Of a DNA stretch of 64,000 nucleotides, positions 2,732 to 46,453 are shown in pieces. The position numbers were made by a program, and so were the translations under genes. The notes under the pieces were generated by a model. The model worked only from the letters and a program-made list of their open reading frames with translations, was not told the origin of the DNA and ran no database searches. The stretch lies in assembly GCF_044647545.1 (NCBI RefSeq), contig NZ_CP172818.1; one strand, 5' to 3'. Origin of the DNA: Escherichia coli. GTDB lineage: Bacteria > Pseudomonadota > Gammaproteobacteria > Enterobacterales > Enterobacteriaceae. The first letter of the stretch is position 1. The number at the start of each line of letters is the position of its first letter.

Positions 2732-3216
2732 TTAATTACCTTCACTCGCGCTTTTTCTCCCACCACCAGCGCGTTGTCCGGGACAGAGTCGAGCACCACG
2801 CTGCCCGCGCCCACGGTGACGTTGTTACCAAGCGTGATATCACCAAGAATAATGACGTTGGCACCGAGTTCGACGCCGTTGCCAATGTGTGGACATGCCA
2901 TGTTATCGGCACCACGATTGCCGATAGTGACGCCGTGGCGAATGGTGAAATCATCCCCCGCGACCACGTTTTTATTGATTACTACGGCGTAACCGTGATG
3001 GATAGTAAAGCGGCGGCCAATGGTCGCGGCAGCCTGGATTTCATAACCGAAAAAGCATTCGGTGATAATGCGATACAGCACCAGCAGCGGGGCCGCCCAC
3101 AGATTGTTGAGGACGTTCTTTTTGCGCCACACCGAACAAAAATGAGCGGCGCGATAGGCAAGAACCATGCAGCACGGGCGTAAACTCCAGCTGTTGGCGC
3201 GCAGATCTTCCAGCAT
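2728..3216 (-). CDS. wcaB: Colanic acid biosynthesis acetyltransferase WcaB (hexapeptide-repeat family)
   Basis: 162-aa ORF with left-handed beta-helix hexapeptide repeats (IGxxVxIxHGVTIGN...); 4-bp overlap with wcaC. Confidence 0.9.
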   Translation of the reverse strand: MLEDLRANSWSLRPCCMVLAYRAAHFCSVWRKKNVLNNLWAAPLLVLYRIITECFFGYEIQAAATIGRRFTIHHGYAVVINKNVVAGDDFTIRHGVTIGNRGADNMACPHIGNGVELGANVIILGDITLGNNVTVGAGSVVLDSVPDNALVVGEKARVKVIK

Positions 3217-8565: not shown

Positions 8566-10149
8566 ATGGAATGGATTGCCGATCCGTCTATCTGGGCTGG
8601 ATTAATCACGCTGATTGTGATCGAACTGGTCCTCGGCATTGATAACCTGGTCTTTATTGCCATCCTCGCCGAAAAACTACCGCCGAAGCAGCGCGACCGC
8701 GCACGGGTTACCGGGCTGCTGCTGGCGATGTTAATGCGCCTGTTACTGCTGGCGTCAATCTCCTGGCTGGTCACCCTGACTCAACCGCTGTTCAGCTTCC
8801 GCTCGTTTACCTTTAGCGCCCGCGACTTAATCATGCTGTTTGGTGGTTTCTTCCTGCTGTTCAAAGCCACGATGGAGCTGAACGAACGGCTGGAAGGGAA
8901 AGACAGCAATAACCCCACGCAACGCAAAGGTGCGAAGTTCTGGGGGGTGGTGACACAAATTGTGGTACTGGACGCCATCTTCTCACTCGACTCGGTGATT
9001 ACCGCCGTCGGGATGGTCGACCATTTACTGGTCATGATGGCCGCCGTCGTTATCGCTATCAGCCTGATGTTGATGGCCAGCAAGCCGTTAACGCAATTTG
9101 TTAACAGTCACCCGACGATCGTTATTCTCTGCTTAAGCTTCCTGTTGATGATTGGCTTTAGCCTGGTGGCAGAAGGTTTCGGCTTCGTCATTCCGAAAGG
9201 CTACCTGTACGCTGCTATTGGTTTCTCGGTGATGATCGAGGCGCTCAATCAGTTGGCTATCTTTAACCGGCGACGTTTTCTTTCCGCTAACCAGACGCTG
9301 CGCCAGCGAACTACCGAAGCGGTAATGCGCCTGTTAAGCGGGCAAAAAGAAGATGCGGAACTGGATGCCGAAACCGCGTCTATGCTGGTGGATCATGATA
9401 ATCAGCAAATCTTTAATCCGCAGGAACGGCGGATGATTGAGCGGGTACTTAATCTTAACCAGCGTACCGTCAGCAGCATTATGACGTCGCGCCACGATAT
9501 TGAGCATATCGATCTCAACGCACCGGAAGAAGAAATCCGCCAGTTGCTGGAGCGAAATCAGCACACGCGACTGGTGGTTACTGATGGCGATGACGCGGAA
9601 GATTTGCTCGGTGTTGTTCACGTTATCGACCTGTTACAACAGTCACTGCGCGGCGAACCGCTCAACCTGCGGGTGTTGATTCGCCAGCCGCTGGTGTTCC
9701 CGGAAACCTTGCCGTTGTTACCTGCCCTGGAGCAGTTCCGTAATGCCCGCACACACTTTGCTTTTGTAGTGGATGAGTTTGGCTCGGTGGAAGGGATTGT
9801 GACATTAAGTGACGTCACAGAAACCATTGCCGGTAACTTACCGAATGAAGTGGAAGAGATCGACGCCCGCCATGATATTCAGAAGAATGCCGACGGTTCC
9901 TGGACGGCGAATGGTCATATGCCGCTGGAAGATCTGGTGCAATATGTGCCGCTGCCGCTGGATGAAAAACGTGAATATCACACCATTGCCGGGCTATTGA
10001 TGGAATATTTGCAGCGTATTCCAAAACCTGGCGAAGAAGTTCAGGTGGGGGATTATTTGCTTAAAACGTTGCAGGTGGAAAGCCATCGCGTGCAGAAGGT
10101 GCAAATTATTCCGCTACGTAAGGATGGCGAGATGGAGTACGAGGTGTGA
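8566..10149 (+). CDS. yegH: Inner membrane protein YegH (TerC-like membrane domain with CBS and CorC/HlyC domains)
   Basis: ORF 8500..10149; start taken at [16 protein letters not shown] (ATG 8566), 527 aa; N-terminal transmembrane segments, C-terminal CBS pair. Confidence 0.85.
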
Positions 10150-10348
10150 TGGTATCAGTCATTTTACCCGATAGCCGAAAGGAATAAGATGAGGGAACCG
10201 CGCCAGCGGCGATTTACCGCCGGGAACCCGGGTTGCCAGGGTGGTGGCGATTGAGCCACCCTGGCACGTTCACCGGCTTAAGCGTTCCATAGTAGCGAGG
10301 AACATCAAGTGAACGGAACAGCCTTCGATCTTACATATTCAGAATATA

Positions 10349-10531
10349 ATGGTGCCGCCCGCTCGCGATGCTGATGGGATCTATCACGTCATGTATGTCG
10401 CAAAATTTGAAGAAGCGGTTTACGTATTGCATTGTTTTCAAAAAAAAACACAAACTACCAGTCAATCGGAAATTGATTTAGCCAAACGACGCTATAAAAA
10501 ACTTGTTCAGGAGGGGAAAAATAAAAATTAA
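10349..10531 (+). pseudogene. C-terminal remnant of a RelE/ParE-superfamily (HigB/Gp49-like) toxin
   Basis: 60-aa ORF ...GIYHVMYVAKFEEAVYVLHCFQKKTQTTSQSEIDLAKRRYKKLVQE carries the YVLHxFQKK motif of this toxin family; a stop lies immediately upstream in frame and no intact N-terminus or antitoxin is present. Confidence 0.45.
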
Positions 10532-10800
10532 AACCTTTGATAGTGGGTGGGATACGGTGAAGGACCCCCCTGAAGGAGGGGAAAAATTGGGGTTCGCGCC
10601 GGGTTGTAAAGAATAATTAAAAATGGAATGGAAAAAAAAGGGTTAGACCGGGTCGGAGAAATTTTCTTTTGGGGGGGTCACACACCCCCGTATTTTAAAT
10701 TCGACAAGGGGAAATCTCAATTTTTTATATATAAATAAATATAATATTATGGGCGCATATGGAGGTTCATATAATAAATATAAAAAATTAAAATACACAT
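10532..10800. repeat. Low-complexity, homopolymer-rich block (probable sequence artifact or insertion)
   Basis: Runs such as gaaggacccccctgaaggaggggaaaaattgggg, tttgggggggtcacacacccccg and AT-only stretches; composition unlike flanking E. coli DNA; no coding or RNA signature. Confidence 0.6.
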
Positions 10801-10820
10801 AGGCTTTATAGTAATAAAAA

Positions 10821-10850
10821 CAGATGGCGACAAATTGACGCCGCCATCTG
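10821..10850 (-). terminator. Probable rho-independent terminator downstream of asmA
   Basis: Inverted repeat cagatggcg...cgccatctg followed by a T-run on the minus strand (+ strand aaaaa at 10816-10820). Confidence 0.5.
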
Positions 10851-10861
10851 CATAACTTGTC

Positions 10862-12715
10862 TTACATCTTCTCCAGCAACTTCTTCACATCTTTGCCATT
10901 GCGGGAATCTTTATTCCGCTCGGCCCAGTCATTCAGGCGACGTTTCGCTTCGTCCTGTAGATGTTTGCGCAGTAACTGATCCACTTGCAGGCTGTAATTG
11001 AGTTGCTGCCAGTTGCCATAAACCCGCAGCGGTACTGGCGTTTCTTTGAGGAAATCAATCAGTTTGCTTTCTCCGTTCCAGCCACCAATCACACGAATGT
11101 CAAACTGGGTGTCGCAGGTTTGATCTGCCAGATTCAACATGCCTTCCCCTGTCAGCGCCAGCACTGGCGATTGACCTTGCATGTCGTTTAACGTCACGAC
11201 GCCATCCTTCAACGTCAAATCGGTGGTAAAGCGGTCAAGACGCGTTACGTTATCGAAGTTTTCAGCGGCCTTCACATCACCACCATTACGTTCTACCGCT
11301 TGCTGAATCATCTGCTGGAAGTTCATCCCTTCCATGCGCGTGTCGGTCATTTCGACATGTGCCTGTCCTTGCCAGTTATGGCGGAATGCGTCGGCATCTA
11401 TGTCAGCACCGGAGAAATCACCAGCCAGTGACATCTTTCCGGTCAACGAAATCGGATAGTTAAACGCCTTCAGAATGGTACCAATCTCAACGTTTTCCAG
11501 CCGTGGCTGGAAGTTTATCCGCGGATTTATTGATGTCGCGTCCAGCGTGCCCGGCAGCGAAACCTGTCCACCGTTAAGCTTGCCCTGCAGTTGAGTAATT
11601 TCCAGCAAACCCGACTTGTTGGTCATTTGCGTGGCAACGTCTGTAAAATTCATTCCGCGCCAGCGCACGTTACTGGCCTGCAACAAAATATCAGCCGTAA
11701 AGCCTTGCAATCCCTGATAGGCCGGTTCATCAATACGCGAAGAAATGACCGGGCGCGGCAACGTGGATTGGCTCTGCCCTTGCTGCGCGGCACCGTTTTC
11801 ACCGTTCGCTGTTTCTTTAAGCGGGATGAGGTTGTCAAGATTCAGTTGCGGGAATTGCAGTCTCAGCTGCCATTCCGGTTTCTCTGTCAGCGTGACCTGT
11901 GCTTGCCCGCTCAGCGTACTGTCATTGGCGGTCAAACTAATTTGGTTAAATGAAAGGCGTTTATGTGACTCCTGCCACTGGGCCTGGAAACTCCCCTGCC
12001 CCTGAATACCTTGTTTTGGTAAATCTGCACCCTGCAACTGCCAGTTAATTTGTTCAATAGCCGCCGTTAAATCATGCGGATAATCAGAAGCATCTACCGT
12101 ACCGTTAAGGGATATCGTGAGATCGCGCTGATCGCGATTAACCCGCCCGGAGAACTCAAATGAGCCACGATGTTGGGGATCTTGTTCCATTTGCAGGCGG
12201 ATATTGCGGATTGTCACCTGCTCGTCATCTTCATGCTGGAACACCAGCACGCTGTCCGCCACCTTAAGACTGGATATATCAAACGACCATCCGCGCTCGT
12301 CTGACAGATCCGGCAAGGTATTGTCGCGCGGTGCAACCGGAGCGTCTTCACTGCGCACTGCTTCCGTCTGCGGCGTCAGTTGGATCACTGCCCCTTTTAG
12401 CATCACCTGCTTAACGCTCAGTTGATGACTCAGTAGTGGTAAAAGCGCCACGTCCAGACGCATGTTGTCGGCGCGAACCAGTGGCTGGCTTGCGCCCTGG
12501 GCGGTGAGAGACATTCGCCCGGAGAGGATACTAAGCTGCGGCCAGACGTGCCAACGCAGTGGCCCGTCGAGCTGCAATTGATAACCGCTACGTGCAGCAA
12601 CTTGCTTGACCATATAGTCGCGGAAATCATTCGGATTCACCAGCAACACTAACGCAGATAACCCGGCCACCAGCACGACCAGGAGTATCATCAGCGTCGT
12701 CAGAAATCGTCTCAT
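10862..12715 (-). CDS. asmA: Outer membrane assembly protein AsmA
   Basis: 617-aa ORF with N-terminal membrane anchor (MRRFLTTLMILLVVLVAGLSALVLLVNPNDFRDY...). Confidence 0.9.
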   Translation of the reverse strand: MRRFLTTLMILLVVLVAGLSALVLLVNPNDFRDYMVKQVAARSGYQLQLDGPLRWHVWPQLSILSGRMSLTAQGASQPLVRADNMRLDVALLPLLSHQLSVKQVMLKGAVIQLTPQTEAVRSEDAPVAPRDNTLPDLSDERGWSFDISSLKVADSVLVFQHEDDEQVTIRNIRLQMEQDPQHRGSFEFSGRVNRDQRDLTISLNGTVDASDYPHDLTAAIEQINWQLQGADLPKQGIQGQGSFQAQWQESHKRLSFNQISLTANDSTLSGQAQVTLTEKPEWQLRLQFPQLNLDNLIPLKETANGENGAAQQGQSQSTLPRPVISSRIDEPAYQGLQGFTADILLQASNVRWRGMNFTDVATQMTNKSGLLEITQLQGKLNGGQVSLPGTLDATSINPRINFQPRLENVEIGTILKAFNYPISLTGKMSLAGDFSGADIDADAFRHNWQGQAHVEMTDTRMEGMNFQQMIQQAVERNGGDVKAAENFDNVTRLDRFTTDLTLKDGVVTLNDMQGQSPVLALTGEGMLNLADQTCDTQFDIRVIGGWNGESKLIDFLKETPVPLRVYGNWQQLNYSLQVDQLLRKHLQDEAKRRLNDWAERNKDSRNGKDVKKLLEKM

Positions 12716-17723: not shown

Positions 17724-18578
17724 CTACAATTCGGCTTCGTCTGGTTGCCAGCCTTCCGTATACCAGATATGCAACAGCGCATAAGAACGCCAGGGCTTCC
17801 AGCGTTCGGCATAACGGCGGATTTGTGCCGGTGTCATTCCCGGAAATCGCTGTTTAATCAGATAATCATCCGGCAGGAAAACATCTTTCGCCTGCCAGCC
17901 GCGCAAGGCGAAATAATTCGCCGTCCAGCGCCCGATACCCGGAAAAGTTTGAAGCGTTTTCATCGCTTGCTCTACGTCGCCCGGAATTGTCATTGATAAG
18001 GTGCCCTCCAGCGCCGCATTTGCCAGATGAATCAGTGCCTCTGCCCGTTTCAACGGCATACCTAACGCTTTTAATGCCTGCGGGTCGGCTGCAGCCAGCC
18101 GCTGAGGCGTGGGGAAGCAGACATAATCCGGAAAATCATCCAGCCGTTCGCCATAAAGCTGTGCCACTCTGGCGGTCAATTTTGCCGCCATCGCCACGCT
18201 CACCAGTTGGCCTAAAATCGCCCGCACGCCCTGCTCAAAAACATCAACACAACCAGGTAAACGCAATCCGGGCCGCGCTGCGCCTAACTCGCCCAACGCC
18301 CCATTAACAATCTGCGGGTTACATTGCAGATCAAACAGGCGGCTCATTTTCGCCAGACACTCAGCGGCAACAGGTTCTAAACCTGCACTTAAATTTATGT
18401 GCAGAGTATGGCTGGCTATATCCGGAATAGCAGTCACCACGCCGCGATATTCGCCCACCGCCAGACTACGGGCATAATAATCGTCAGCGACCGTTTCCAC
18501 ACCGTTCACCGCACGGGCGGCGAGAAATCCCAACATCCACGACCAGTCATATGGCGGCTGCCAGTTCAGGGTATACAT
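17724..18578 (-). CDS. alkA: 3-methyladenine DNA glycosylase II
   Basis: 284-aa ORF MYTLNWQPPYDWSWMLGFLAARAV... with helix-hairpin-helix glycosylase core. Confidence 0.9.
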   Translation of the reverse strand: MYTLNWQPPYDWSWMLGFLAARAVNGVETVADDYYARSLAVGEYRGVVTAIPDIASHTLHINLSAGLEPVAAECLAKMSRLFDLQCNPQIVNGALGELGAARPGLRLPGCVDVFEQGVRAILGQLVSVAMAAKLTARVAQLYGERLDDFPDYVCFPTPQRLAAADPQALKALGMPLKRAEALIHLANAALEGTLSMTIPGDVEQAMKTLQTFPGIGRWTANYFALRGWQAKDVFLPDDYLIKQRFPGMTPAQIRRYAERWKPWRSYALLHIWYTEGWQPDEAEL

Positions 18579-22017: not shown

Positions 22018-22774
22018 GGTACCACAGCGCCAGTGCCAACGTTTTATCATCATCGGTACGCTCGTTTACCGCCGGGCTGGACAAAAACTGCTTTAACAAT
22101 TCAGGTAATAAATCGAGTTGTTCCTGCGTTGCTGACGCCAGTCCATTGAAAAACGGGGTAAAGAAAGGCACATGCGGAGAATTATCCAGCATATTTAACG
22201 CCAGTCGCTGAATACCATCCGTAAATGCTGCAACTTTATGCGCACGCTCAGTACTGGTGTAAGTTTCCAGTCTGGAAACAGCATCGTCATCGGTAATGAA
22301 GTGCGTCATATTGGCATATTCCCCCACCATCGGCGTGAGCGGCAGTTGCAAACCGTGACCCAAATCTACCACCACGCCGCCATCGCCAATCTGCATAATC
22401 AAGGTGCCATTAGCTGATGAAATCAATCCCAAAAACGTGCAGGCAAAATCGCGAACCGCTAATTCTTTGGCTTCCGCCTCGGCAAAAAGTCGCTGACGAA
22501 TGGTCAGCACAATGTCCGTTGCGAGGACATCATTAAGCCCCAATTCCCCGCCCTGCACTTTTTGCGACATATAAGCCATCGCTTCATTGACGGCGAGCAT
22601 CGCACCTTCGCCACCCTGCGAGACGCTGCCTGCGCCATCAGCGACAAATACCGACAATAATGGCTGCTGGTCTTCTAACCAGGCAACCTGCATCTGGCAG
22701 GCATCCTGGCAAGACAAGTCAGCGCTGATGTGCGACGTTCCAACGGTTGATGCATAGACCAGACGCCAGCTCAC
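21986..22774 (-). CDS. yegK: PP2C-type Ser/Thr protein phosphatase YegK (PphC)
   Basis: 262-aa ORF with PP2C-like acidic motifs (VFVADGAGS..., IGDGGVVV); 4-bp overlap with yegL and 32-bp overlap with the yegI start as called. Confidence 0.8.
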
Positions 22775-23430: not shown

Positions 23431-23611
23431 AAGAAATCCTTTCTTAGAGAATTATTGAGGTCCGGTATCATACCGATTGCAATAATGAAATAAGAGCAAA
23501 CGAAGAAACTTTCAGAATTAGGCCCGGCGGCGCAGAAAATTTTGCTATTCGCCTCGCAAGAACGGAGAGCCGTCGATTGACACTAAGGGCGGAGTGACAT
23601 AATTTCAGGAG

Positions 23612-23755
23612 TGAGGGTTAGGGAGAGGTTTCCCCCCTCCCCCTGGTGTTCTTAGTAAGCCTGGAAGCTAATCACTAAGAGTATCACCAGTATGATGACG
23701 TGCTTCATCATAACCCTTTCCTTATTAAAAGCCCTCTTCTCCGGGAGAGGGTTTC
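23612..23755 (+). ncRNA. sibA: SibA antisense sRNA (type I antitoxin of ibsA)
   Basis: Strong promoter ttgaca-N17-taattt at 23577-23605; transcript fully antisense to ibsA; terminator hairpin ccctcttctccgggagaggg + ttt at 23732-23754; ~144 nt. Confidence 0.6.
23652..23711 (-). CDS. ibsA: Type I toxin IbsA (19-aa hydrophobic peptide)
   Basis: Minus-strand ORF atgatgaagcacgtcatcatactggtgatactcttagtgattagcttccaggcttactaa = MMKHVIILVILLVISFQAY. Confidence 0.7.
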   Translation of the reverse strand: MMKHVIILVILLVISFQAY

Positions 23756-23947
23756 CCGTTTCAGCGTCCCGCTGAAATCGTCGGCTTACCTCCTTTCGCC
23801 CTGAATGCAGTCTATCGCTAACGCGTGAACAAAATAGTTTCCCCTGTGATTATTGCGTAACGTCTCGCAAAGAATATTTGCTCGCAGGATCGCAGACTAC
23901 AAAGCCTGCGGATTGACAATCTGATTGTGAAGGCATACTTTCAGGAG

Positions 23948-24083
23948 TGAGGGTAGAGCGGGGTTTCCCCCGCCCTGGTAGTCTTAGTATGCTGGCCAGC
24001 TAATCACTAAGAGCACCACGATGATGATCCACTTCATCATGACCCTTTCCTTATTTAAGGCCCCTTCCTCGGGAGGGGCTTTC
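23948..24083 (+). ncRNA. sibB: SibB antisense sRNA (type I antitoxin of ibsB)
   Basis: Promoter ttgaca-N17-tacttt at 23913-23941; antisense to ibsB; terminator hairpin ccccttcctcgggagggg at 24061-24078; ~136 nt. Confidence 0.6.
23984..24040 (-). CDS. ibsB: Type I toxin IbsB (18-aa hydrophobic peptide)
   Basis: Minus-strand ORF translating to MMKWIIIVVLLVISWPAY, paralogous to ibsA. Confidence 0.65.
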   Translation of the reverse strand: MMKWIIIVVLLVISWPAY

Positions 24084-24247
24084 CCGTTTCAGCGTCCCGC
24101 TGAAATCGGCGGCCTACCTCCTTTTGCCCTGAATGCAGTCTATCGCTAACGCGTAGATAAAATAGTTTCCTGTGTTATTACTGGATGCGTGCTCGCAAAT
24201 GCGCCCGTCATTCAGACGATTCCCGACAGTGTTTCATAATTCCTCCA

Positions 24248-35813: not shown

Positions 35814-36044
35814 TGACGATGCCGGGCGTGGGTTGTTGGCGTCCGGCTTTATATCAAAACAACTCTTATTTATTGATAATTAAGATTAACCTCCGCCATT
35901 AAAATATGGGCACTGACGAGCACTCGTTTCTTTCTTTTTTACCATCCCATACTTATCTTCCTGAATATGTTCATATGCCAAAATATCTTCTAATACTTTC
36001 GACCTACCGGTTTATGAAATACACTGATGAAGATTTTTACTTAC

Positions 36045-36545
<501 letters not shown>

Positions 36546-36653
36546 AGCTAAACCCGCCGATTGCGCTACAATGCCCGCCCTTAAAGTGGGGGCACTCCCC
36601 TAACCGCTTCATCAGGTGAAGCGGATCTGACCTGTCATCAGAACGAGAGAATT

Positions 36654-38099: not shown

Positions 38100-38190
38100 G
38101 CTGAAAAACATAACCCATAAAATGCTAGCTGTACCAGGAACCACCTCCTTAGCCTGTGTAATCTCCCTTACACACACGGGCTTATTTTTT
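38100..38190 (+). ncRNA. cyaR: CyaR (RyeE) Hfq-dependent sRNA
   Basis: gctgaaaaacataacccataaaatgctagctgtaccaggaaccacctccttagcctgtgtaatctccc...gggcttatttttt matches CyaR as I recall it, including the terminator hairpin and U-tail. Confidence 0.8.
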
Positions 38191-40940: not shown

Positions 40941-41981
40941 TCAGGGAATGAGCAACACTTTGCCCGGCATAGCATTACGAGCGATGTCACGCACCGCCTG
41001 GGCGAAGCTTTCAAAGCTTCCACGGTGAGCGATTAATGGCTCCAGGCTTAACTTACGTTCTGTCAGCAACCGGCTCGCCGTTTCCCACTCCTGCCCCGGC
41101 CAAGGGCTGGAGTAGTTCATCCAACTGCCGATAACCGTCAGCTCTTTACGCAATATTTTGCCAAACGTTGCCGATGTTAAATGCAGATCCTGATGCAACG
41201 TGCCCACCAGCGCCAGCTGGGCATGAGGCCCGGCAATCTCTACCGCCAGTTCGACGGTTTGCGGGACGCCAGCCGTCTCGAGGATAAGCTGATTAAAGCG
41301 CAGCTCGCGTAAAACGCCCTGCATTTGCGGCGCGCTCATTTCAAGGCTGTTAAATGTTTGCATCGCACCGAAAGATTTTGCCAGTGCCAGTTTTTCTGAG
41401 CTAATGTCGATAGCCGTCACACTCTTTGCTCCCAGCGCGACAGCGCACTGAATGGCCAGCAGGCCAATGGTTCCGGCACCAATAATAATAACGTTTTTAT
41501 TCTCACAACCTTGCGCTAAATGAAAAGCATGCAGGCCAACGGTAATCGGTTCAATAAAAGCCCCTTCCTCAATAGGCATATCCGCAGGTAGAGCAAAGAC
41601 ATTTTTCCGCTTAACGACAATATATTCGGCAACCCCACCATCACGCCGTGAGCCAATAAAATCATATTTTGCGCACTGGGAATAAAACCCTTTCAGACAC
41701 TCTGGACAAGTAAAACAGGGTAATAACGGCACACAGGCAACCGCATCGCCAGGATGTAAATCATCAACACCGGATCCCACCGCATCAATATAGCCGCTAA
41801 ATTCATGGCCTAACGTTATTGGATAATAATGTGCACCATTTTTAAATATCCTGGGTAAATCGGAACCACATACGCCCGAGCTGGCAATTTTTACCCGCAC
41901 CTCATCCTGATGATTAATTTCAGGAATGACTCGTTCTTCAACGCGCACGATACCATCAGTATCATTCACCACTGATTTCAT
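40941..41981 (-). CDS. gatD: Galactitol-1-phosphate 5-dehydrogenase (Zn-dependent MDR family)
   Basis: 346-aa ORF with Zn-ligand Cys/His pattern (GVCGSDL, GHEFSG) and Rossmann GxGxxG (IIGAGTIG). Confidence 0.9.
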   Translation of the reverse strand: MKSVVNDTDGIVRVEERVIPEINHQDEVRVKIASSGVCGSDLPRIFKNGAHYYPITLGHEFSGYIDAVGSGVDDLHPGDAVACVPLLPCFTCPECLKGFYSQCAKYDFIGSRRDGGVAEYIVVKRKNVFALPADMPIEEGAFIEPITVGLHAFHLAQGCENKNVIIIGAGTIGLLAIQCAVALGAKSVTAIDISSEKLALAKSFGAMQTFNSLEMSAPQMQGVLRELRFNQLILETAGVPQTVELAVEIAGPHAQLALVGTLHQDLHLTSATFGKILRKELTVIGSWMNYSSPWPGQEWETASRLLTERKLSLEPLIAHRGSFESFAQAVRDIARNAMPGKVLLIP

Positions 41982-46425: not shown

Positions 46426-46453
46426 AAAAAAAACGGCCTCCCGGGGAAGCCGT
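46426..46453 (-). terminator. Rho-independent terminator downstream of fbaB
   Basis: Minus-strand hairpin cggcttccccgggaggccg followed by T8 (+ strand aaaaaaaa at 46426-46433). Confidence 0.55.

Follow-up and report, generated by a model that had tools for sequence, protein, structure and literature searches.

A garbled low-complexity block between yegH and asmA of Escherichia coli, very probably a construction artefact over a toxin-antitoxin remnant

Does the low-complexity block that lies between yegH and asmA in this Escherichia coli record represent genuine sequence of the strain, or is it a corrupted version of something more ordinary? The block lies in the window, by which we mean the whole stretch of 64,000 nucleotides that was analyzed. 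A sequence-only reading had placed it at 10532-10800, just after the fragment of a toxin gene and where an antitoxin gene might be expected, and had suggested that the sequence could be corrupt. It had also remarked on a similar block near 36 kb. We have compared both regions with the equivalent loci of related genomes, and have examined how the discrepancies are distributed.

An abnormal tract in the yegH-asmA spacer

The low-complexity character of positions 10532-10800 is statistically real. This segment contains eight homopolymer runs of at least 5 nt, compared with a mean of 1.28 (standard deviation 1.49) for all 269-nt windows. Windows with eight or more such runs per 269 nt were found only where they touch either the yegH-asmA block or the 36-kb block, the maximum elsewhere being seven. 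The probability P that a base repeats the preceding one is 0.444 in the segment, against 0.267 in the whole window (z = 4.2), and there is an excess of G and A on the + strand, with a GC skew of up to +0.43. The strings quoted in the sequence-only reading were all found where it had located them.

The yegH stop codon is at 10149 and that of asmA, which is encoded on the minus strand, is at 10862. This gives a spacer of 712 nt, compared with 273 nt in K-12 MG1655, agreeing well with the ~710 bp that had been claimed and with the impression that it is longer than in K-12. On its yegH side the spacer has a clean segment at 10165-10359 that is shared with K-12 at 96.9% identity, and homology with K-12 stops at 10359. 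At its other end is the terminator hairpin of asmA (10820-10851, minus strand), with 13 pairs; this is also clean, and the same as in relatives. An Rfam scan of 10100-10900 returned a single match, a sub-threshold chance similarity to a Plasmodium snoRNA that scored 25 bits, where the gathering score is 80, and a promoter scan of the block gave a count that was not above that for shuffled sequence.

The intact locus in related genomes

The spacer was compared by megablast with 5,426 complete E. coli genomes. It was covered over its whole length in 116 of these, at only 86.1% identity. In one of them, FDAARGOS_497 (NZ_CP033850.1, 4720836-4721559), the same site carries an annotated pseudogene of a RelE/ParE-family toxin lacking its N terminus, followed by an intact helix-turn-helix gene of 291 nt and 96 codons (WP_022645843.1) and then directly by asmA. 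A complete pair is present at the same site in O157:H7, with a toxin of 112 amino acids and an antitoxin of 96 amino acids whose genes overlap by 11 nt. K-12 MG1655 has neither toxin nor antitoxin there.

The O157:H7 toxin contains a Gp49 domain (PF05973, E = 1.5e-30). A phmmer search for this gp49-family toxin found no solved structure. The antitoxin protein contains an HTH_37 domain (PF13744, E = 1.3e-21), and its nearest solved relative is 2a6c (E = 3.6e-14). The full-length antitoxin gene was found in ~909 of the 5,426 complete genomes, in every case with at least 90% identity, and with at least 95% in 904 records. The expectation that an antitoxin belongs at the position of the block was therefore well founded, since an intact 291-nt HTH antitoxin gene occupies it in these genomes.

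The upstream toxin fragment is also real. It lies within an ORF at 10349-10531, and the remnant itself occupies 10364-10531 on the + strand, corresponding to the C-terminal 55 codons of a gp49-family toxin (PF05973, RelE/ParE superfamily) and to the pseudogene of FDAARGOS_497. It matches residues 57-112, the C-terminal 56 residues, of the O157:H7 toxin with 89% identity, although its last ~90 nt already bear artefactual substitutions. The truncation is common to the closest relatives, where the C-terminal 55-56 residues likewise are left, and because it is shared in this way we conclude that the truncation of the toxin is genuine.

The arrangement of the two genes is preserved even in the window, where the stop codon of the toxin at 10529-10531 overlaps the start position of the antitoxin at 10521, giving the toxin-first order and the overlap. 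The same 11-nt overlap is found in FDAARGOS_497 (12050-12217 and 12207-12497 of the locus extract) as well as in O157:H7. What the window as written lacks is an intact antitoxin ORF with an HTH domain, which is present in the relatives as a protein of 96 amino acids. An intact toxin ORF with a Gp49/RelE-fold domain is absent from both the window and its closest relatives, and present in O157:H7.

How does this locus compare with known systems? Toxins of the gp49 family are members of the RelE/ParE superfamily; their genes precede those of the antitoxins (T/A), and they cleave mRNA in a ribosome-dependent manner (PMC11980606, Table 1). By its toxin-first order, Gp49 toxin and HTH_37 antitoxin, the O157:H7 locus is predicted to be a module of this kind. 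The window and its nearest relatives depart from it in that the toxin lacks its N-terminal ~57 residues, and the pair is not expected to function. The sequence-only reading had asked whether any E. coli genome has a higB/higA-like pair at the site. O157:H7 does have a toxin-antitoxin pair there, but the pair is of gp49/HTH_37 type and not a canonical HigB/HigA. HigB2 is PF06296, outside the gp49 family (PMC11980606), and both this identity and that of canonical HigB (PF09907) were rejected, the toxin being PF05973 instead.

In the real strain the locus most likely comprises an orphan antitoxin, probably of the HTH repressor type, beside a dead toxin, with nothing left for it to neutralize.

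A positional pattern of errors at two sites

Over the 64 kb, the window and FDAARGOS_497 are 99.97-99.99% identical outside three places, i.e., with about one difference per 10 kb. This genome served as the template for the locus. The spacer matches it perfectly through to 10443 save for one extra C at 10358 (GCCGCCCGC vs GCCGCCGC), which is the first discrepancy and falls exactly at the boundary of K-12 homology. From 10444 to 10819 the sequence is corrupted, with 90 substitutions and 13 gap columns relative to the template. The block is thus abnormal, as had been claimed, but the limits of 10532-10800 originally placed upon it were too narrow.

The discrepancies are not distributed evenly along the tract. 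There are 1-3 mismatches per 25 nt over 10444-10574, rising to 7-11 over 10575-10799, with 10 in the last bin. The error is ~40% at 10800-10819 and zero from 10820 onward; the final mismatch is at 10819, so that the corruption halts at the base of the asmA hairpin. Despite this, the length of the block is kept to within 1 nt, and the ungapped identity in register is 71.7% over 460 nt (~28% of positions differ). The substitutions have a distinct character, in that 68 of the 90 replace a base by the one that precedes or follows it in the template, where 45 ± 4.5 would be expected; this was reached in none of 5,000 simulations. The copying is symmetrical, 46 substitutions being to the previous base and 42 to the next. 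C is the base most often lost and A that most often gained. The corrupted tract contains 13 runs of at least 5 nt compared with one in the template, and these homopolymers arise because the errors mostly copy neighboring bases.

The antitoxin gene can still be recognized within the tract. At 10521-10809 on the + strand there is a garbled form of the 96-codon HTH_37 gene, with ATA in place of its ATG start and stop codons at codons 32, 42 and 94. Parts of the real protein remain visible in the garbled frame (IKIKTFDSGWDTV vs MKIETFDSVWDTV, and GVTHPRI vs GVTQPRI).

Two apparent terminator signals owe their existence to the errors. A hairpin of G5/C5 on the + strand at 10673-10689 (GGGGGTCACACACCCCC) is a product of the corruption, the template having AGGGGTCACTCAACCTC. 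Similarly, the T-run of the asmA terminator on the minus strand is made cleaner at 10810-10819 by the corruption, and is absent from the true template.

We searched for the garbled sequence in other records. At least 80% of the block was covered in none of the 5,426 complete E. coli genomes, the best match having 74.5% identity over 60% of its length, and there were no exact matches to the garbled string in the GTDB representative genomes. An exact search of the JGI metagenomes also gave no matches; since the positive control with an intact stretch likewise gave none, that scan was uninformative. The block is therefore absent from independent assemblies that contain the same locus.

The second block has the same signature. 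Between yegP and yegQ, the sequence at 36001-36544 is a garbled parD-parE pair, with isolated errors beginning at 35906 and a clean restart at 36545, a few bases 5′ of the parE stop codon. The pair is intact in FDAARGOS_497 (36014-36551 in terms of the window). Here the errors begin as isolated deletions of 1 nt, followed by substitutions that increase from left to right, and the block is ~61-65 nt shorter than its template. It passes into poly-G where the template is rich in G and then into poly-A where it is rich in A, but after ~250 nt of this the template signal returns (TTTTTTTTTTCTTCCTTCC vs TTTTTGTTCTTCCTTTT). The late re-emergence of the template indicates that the process was reading a true template through a noisy channel, and not inventing sequence. 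The likeness between the two blocks that had been remarked upon is consequently borne out, with the same gradient and homopolymers lying over an unrelated locus.

Elsewhere in the window, tandem type I Ibs/Sib repeats at 23598-23871 and 23934-24199, with ~83% identity between the copies, are intact and uncorrupted. In relatives they correspond to ibsA and an Ibs-family toxin.

What do the two garbled places have in common? Only two segments of the window longer than 50 nt have no counterpart in K-12 MG1655, at 10360-10862 and 35848-36562, and these are the islets that are garbled. In successive steps of 100 nt rightward of the left K-12 boundary, the error rate is 0.02, 0.06, 0.29 and 0.38 in the first islet, and 0.05, 0.06, 0.21 and 0.45 in the parDE islet. 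Errors set in 85-150 nt beyond the left edge in both islets, and the clean restart precedes the return of K-12 homology by 43 nt in the first block and 18 nt in the second. Both gradients run along the + strand of the window.

There are 19 other alignment columns in which the window and FDAARGOS_497 differ, most of them at structural junctions with K-12, in K-12-absent segments or in homopolymers. Small deletions occur in two shorter segments that K-12 lacks (18 and 48 nt); TCC is missing within one such segment at 17733, at the 3′ end of alkA, and A is missing within another at 22020, at the pphC/yegI junction. At 38170-38173 an additional ACAC (TTACACACACGGG vs TTACACGGG) falls at the junction where K-12 has the ogrK/P2 prophage remnant, which is absent from the strain, and this looks like a junction artefact. 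The parDE islet has four single-G deletions at 35906-35937. Two homopolymers are shortened, G5 to G4 at 46442 between gatY and fbaB, and C7 to C6 at 59572 in yehB, where it would cause a frameshift. Four single-base substitutions fall outside the junction and homopolymer classes. One is in gatD (C/A at 41633), another is at 3199 (G/T, where the window agrees with K-12), and the others are in the parDE islet (T/C at 35966) and the yehA tract (A/G at 57443).

The central part of yehA, encoding a fimbrial adhesin-like protein (56468-57443, minus strand), is anomalous in another way. Its complexity is normal, and it is 100% identical to K-12 MG1655, with the K-12 type at all 507 informative sites; in its flanks, all 270 are of the FDAARGOS type. 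The K-12-type allele is common, with at least 99% identity in 1,349 genomes, but its combination with FDAARGOS-type flanks was found in none of the 5,426 complete genomes. The tract could be either carry-over from a reference or a natural exchange of alleles. In addition, FDAARGOS_497 and other listed top matches have an element of the IS110 family of ~1.56 kb just after yegH. The site at 10165-10172 is empty in the window, as it is in K-12, and the absence of the element could be genuine.

Taken together, the errors are positional and technical in nature, with a gradient, an abrupt end and copying of neighboring bases, and the same pattern recurs at unrelated loci of the record, in the parDE block and in the small errors at junctions and homopolymers. 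All the testable features of an artefact were found in the block, which by contrast does not conform to a gp49/HTH_37 module, having neither an antitoxin ORF nor a complete toxin. It is a position-dependent degradation of a known template in which the register has been preserved. The conclusion that we draw from these sequence comparisons is that the block at 10444-10819 is very probably an artefact of construction, a degraded rendering of the 3′ end of the toxin remnant together with an intact 291-nt antitoxin gene. The suggestion of corruption made at the outset is well supported, since the relatives have a clean antitoxin gene of the predicted size and the garbled form occurs in none of them.

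Possible origins of the artefact and its consequences

How might such a degradation have come about? We lean toward the view that the window is a consensus sequence whose construction was guided by a K-12-like reference. Under this mechanism the regions alignable to K-12 would be called essentially perfectly, and where the allele of the strain is too divergent to align, as may be the case in yehA, the bases of the reference would be retained. In insertions relative to K-12 the bases would be stacked from the left anchor, without realignment of the indel-prone reads to each other. The register would then drift with distance, such that a vote on each column would give neighboring bases and later whichever base is locally commonest, until the right anchor restored the register. 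The quality of the sequence does track the presence of a K-12 counterpart, as such a process predicts. The window resembles artefacts of this class in its gradient from the boundary of homology, its copying of neighbors, its homopolymer smears and its abrupt recovery, and equally in the errors of homopolymer length (G5 to G4, C7 to C6); the K-12-identical tract in the hyperdivergent yehA may be a further such feature. The genes of the window follow the same ascending order (wza, yegH, asmA, dcd, udk) as in the standard MG1655 record, and this would suit left-justified insertions.

The agreement is not complete. The right restart occurs 18-43 nt inside the islets and not at the K-12 boundary, which counts against a K-12-guided mechanism. 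Voting by column on left-justified insertions was imitated in a toy simulation, which gave a delayed onset, rising errors, a neighbor-copy fraction of 0.6-1.0, runs of at least 5 nt and slight shortening. It failed to generate the plateau of 40-50% error or the loss of ~65 nt from parDE, and over the range of indel rates for which the onset is delayed it missed the lower neighbor-copy fraction that is observed (0.73-0.75), so the fit is qualitative only. A deterministic blur, using a Gaussian kernel that widened either as the square root or linearly and taking the argmax, predicted 73.5-73.9% of positions compared with 71.7% for the raw template, and this gain is too small to discriminate between the models.

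The main rival, possible though we think it doubtful, is that in each islet the gap was closed by the poor-quality 3′ tail of one Sanger-type read, to which the following contig was attached at 10820 in the first. As the peaks broadened the base-caller would at first repeat neighboring bases and eventually register nothing but the dominant dye; both the copying of neighbors and the homopolymers are seen, with a gradient in one direction and an abrupt end. The tails of Sanger reads in finished sequence show a comparable progressive loss of resolution, repeated calls and late collapse to one or two bases, and the 36-kb block is shortened and ends in poly-G and poly-A as late compression of a trace would predict. 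A Sanger read is, however, normally clean for at least 600 nt. The onset here is tied to the edge of the islet instead of to distance from a primer, lying 85-150 nt beyond it with the same curve of error against distance in both blocks, and both primers would have had to lie ~500 nt upstream by coincidence. The first block remains almost in register, its length being held to 1 nt over 460 nt, which is unusual for the tail of a trace. Such a tail also leaves the K-12-identical yehA tract and the small errors at K-12 junctions without explanation.

We consider it improbable that the sequence was corrupted by software after assembly, either by deliberate or simulated degradation or by a sequence model filling in between true flanks. 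The collapse into poly-G and poly-A is like degenerate generative output, and the blocks lie near the limits of the toxin-antitoxin genes (10364-10809 for the genes against 10358 or 10444 to 10819 for the errors, and 36014-36551 against 36001-36544). This coincidence is equally well explained by these islets being the only ones absent from K-12. Free generation would not maintain similarity to the template to the end of the first block, nor allow it to return in the second, and as the second block is shorter by 61-65 nt the replacement was not one of equal length. Moreover, the Ibs type I toxin genes are untouched, and the small errors of the second block start at 35906, well 5′ of the annotated gene.

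That the sequence is genuine, the antitoxin having been orphaned by truncation of the toxin and then decayed or hypermutated in this strain, is hardly credible. The toxin is truly truncated in the lineage, and relaxed selection on the antitoxin may have followed. Yet the tract has ~100 changes in 376 nt in surroundings that have ~1 per 10 kb, which would require the local rate to be raised by a factor of thousands, and the antitoxin gene varies by no more than 10% across the species. Decay would not be expected to produce a smooth gradient with a knife-edge end and the copying of neighboring bases, nor to have the same pattern at an unrelated and intact parDE pair. We attach just as little weight to a localized, directional hypermutation that scrambled two toxin-antitoxin islets by converting bases to their neighbors while sparing the flanks. 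Hypermutation by a deaminase is ruled out by the mixed spectrum, in which G>A and C>T together make up 29 of the 90 substitutions, the remainder being mainly transversions. Mutagenesis by a diversity-generating retroelement is adenine-specific, and is ruled out by the same spectrum. Poor coverage resulting from toxicity on cloning was set aside, since a dead toxin and an antitoxin are all that the first block holds, and absence from K-12 accounts for both sites.

If the block is an artefact of construction, as we think very probable, the record should carry a flag on data quality. All insertions relative to K-12 appear to be unreliable in it, and the hyperdivergent yehA may be sequence of the reference. 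The 36-kb block should be dismissed on the same grounds. The apparent losses, i.e., of the parDE pair, of the antitoxin and of the yehB reading frame through the frameshift at 59572, are not to be taken as biology, and the seemingly better T-tail of the asmA terminator belongs to the artefact. The block itself is without biological significance. What lies underneath it is a common and already annotated toxin-antitoxin remnant, an ordinary accessory type II module of the gp49/HTH_37 kind that has been reduced in this lineage.
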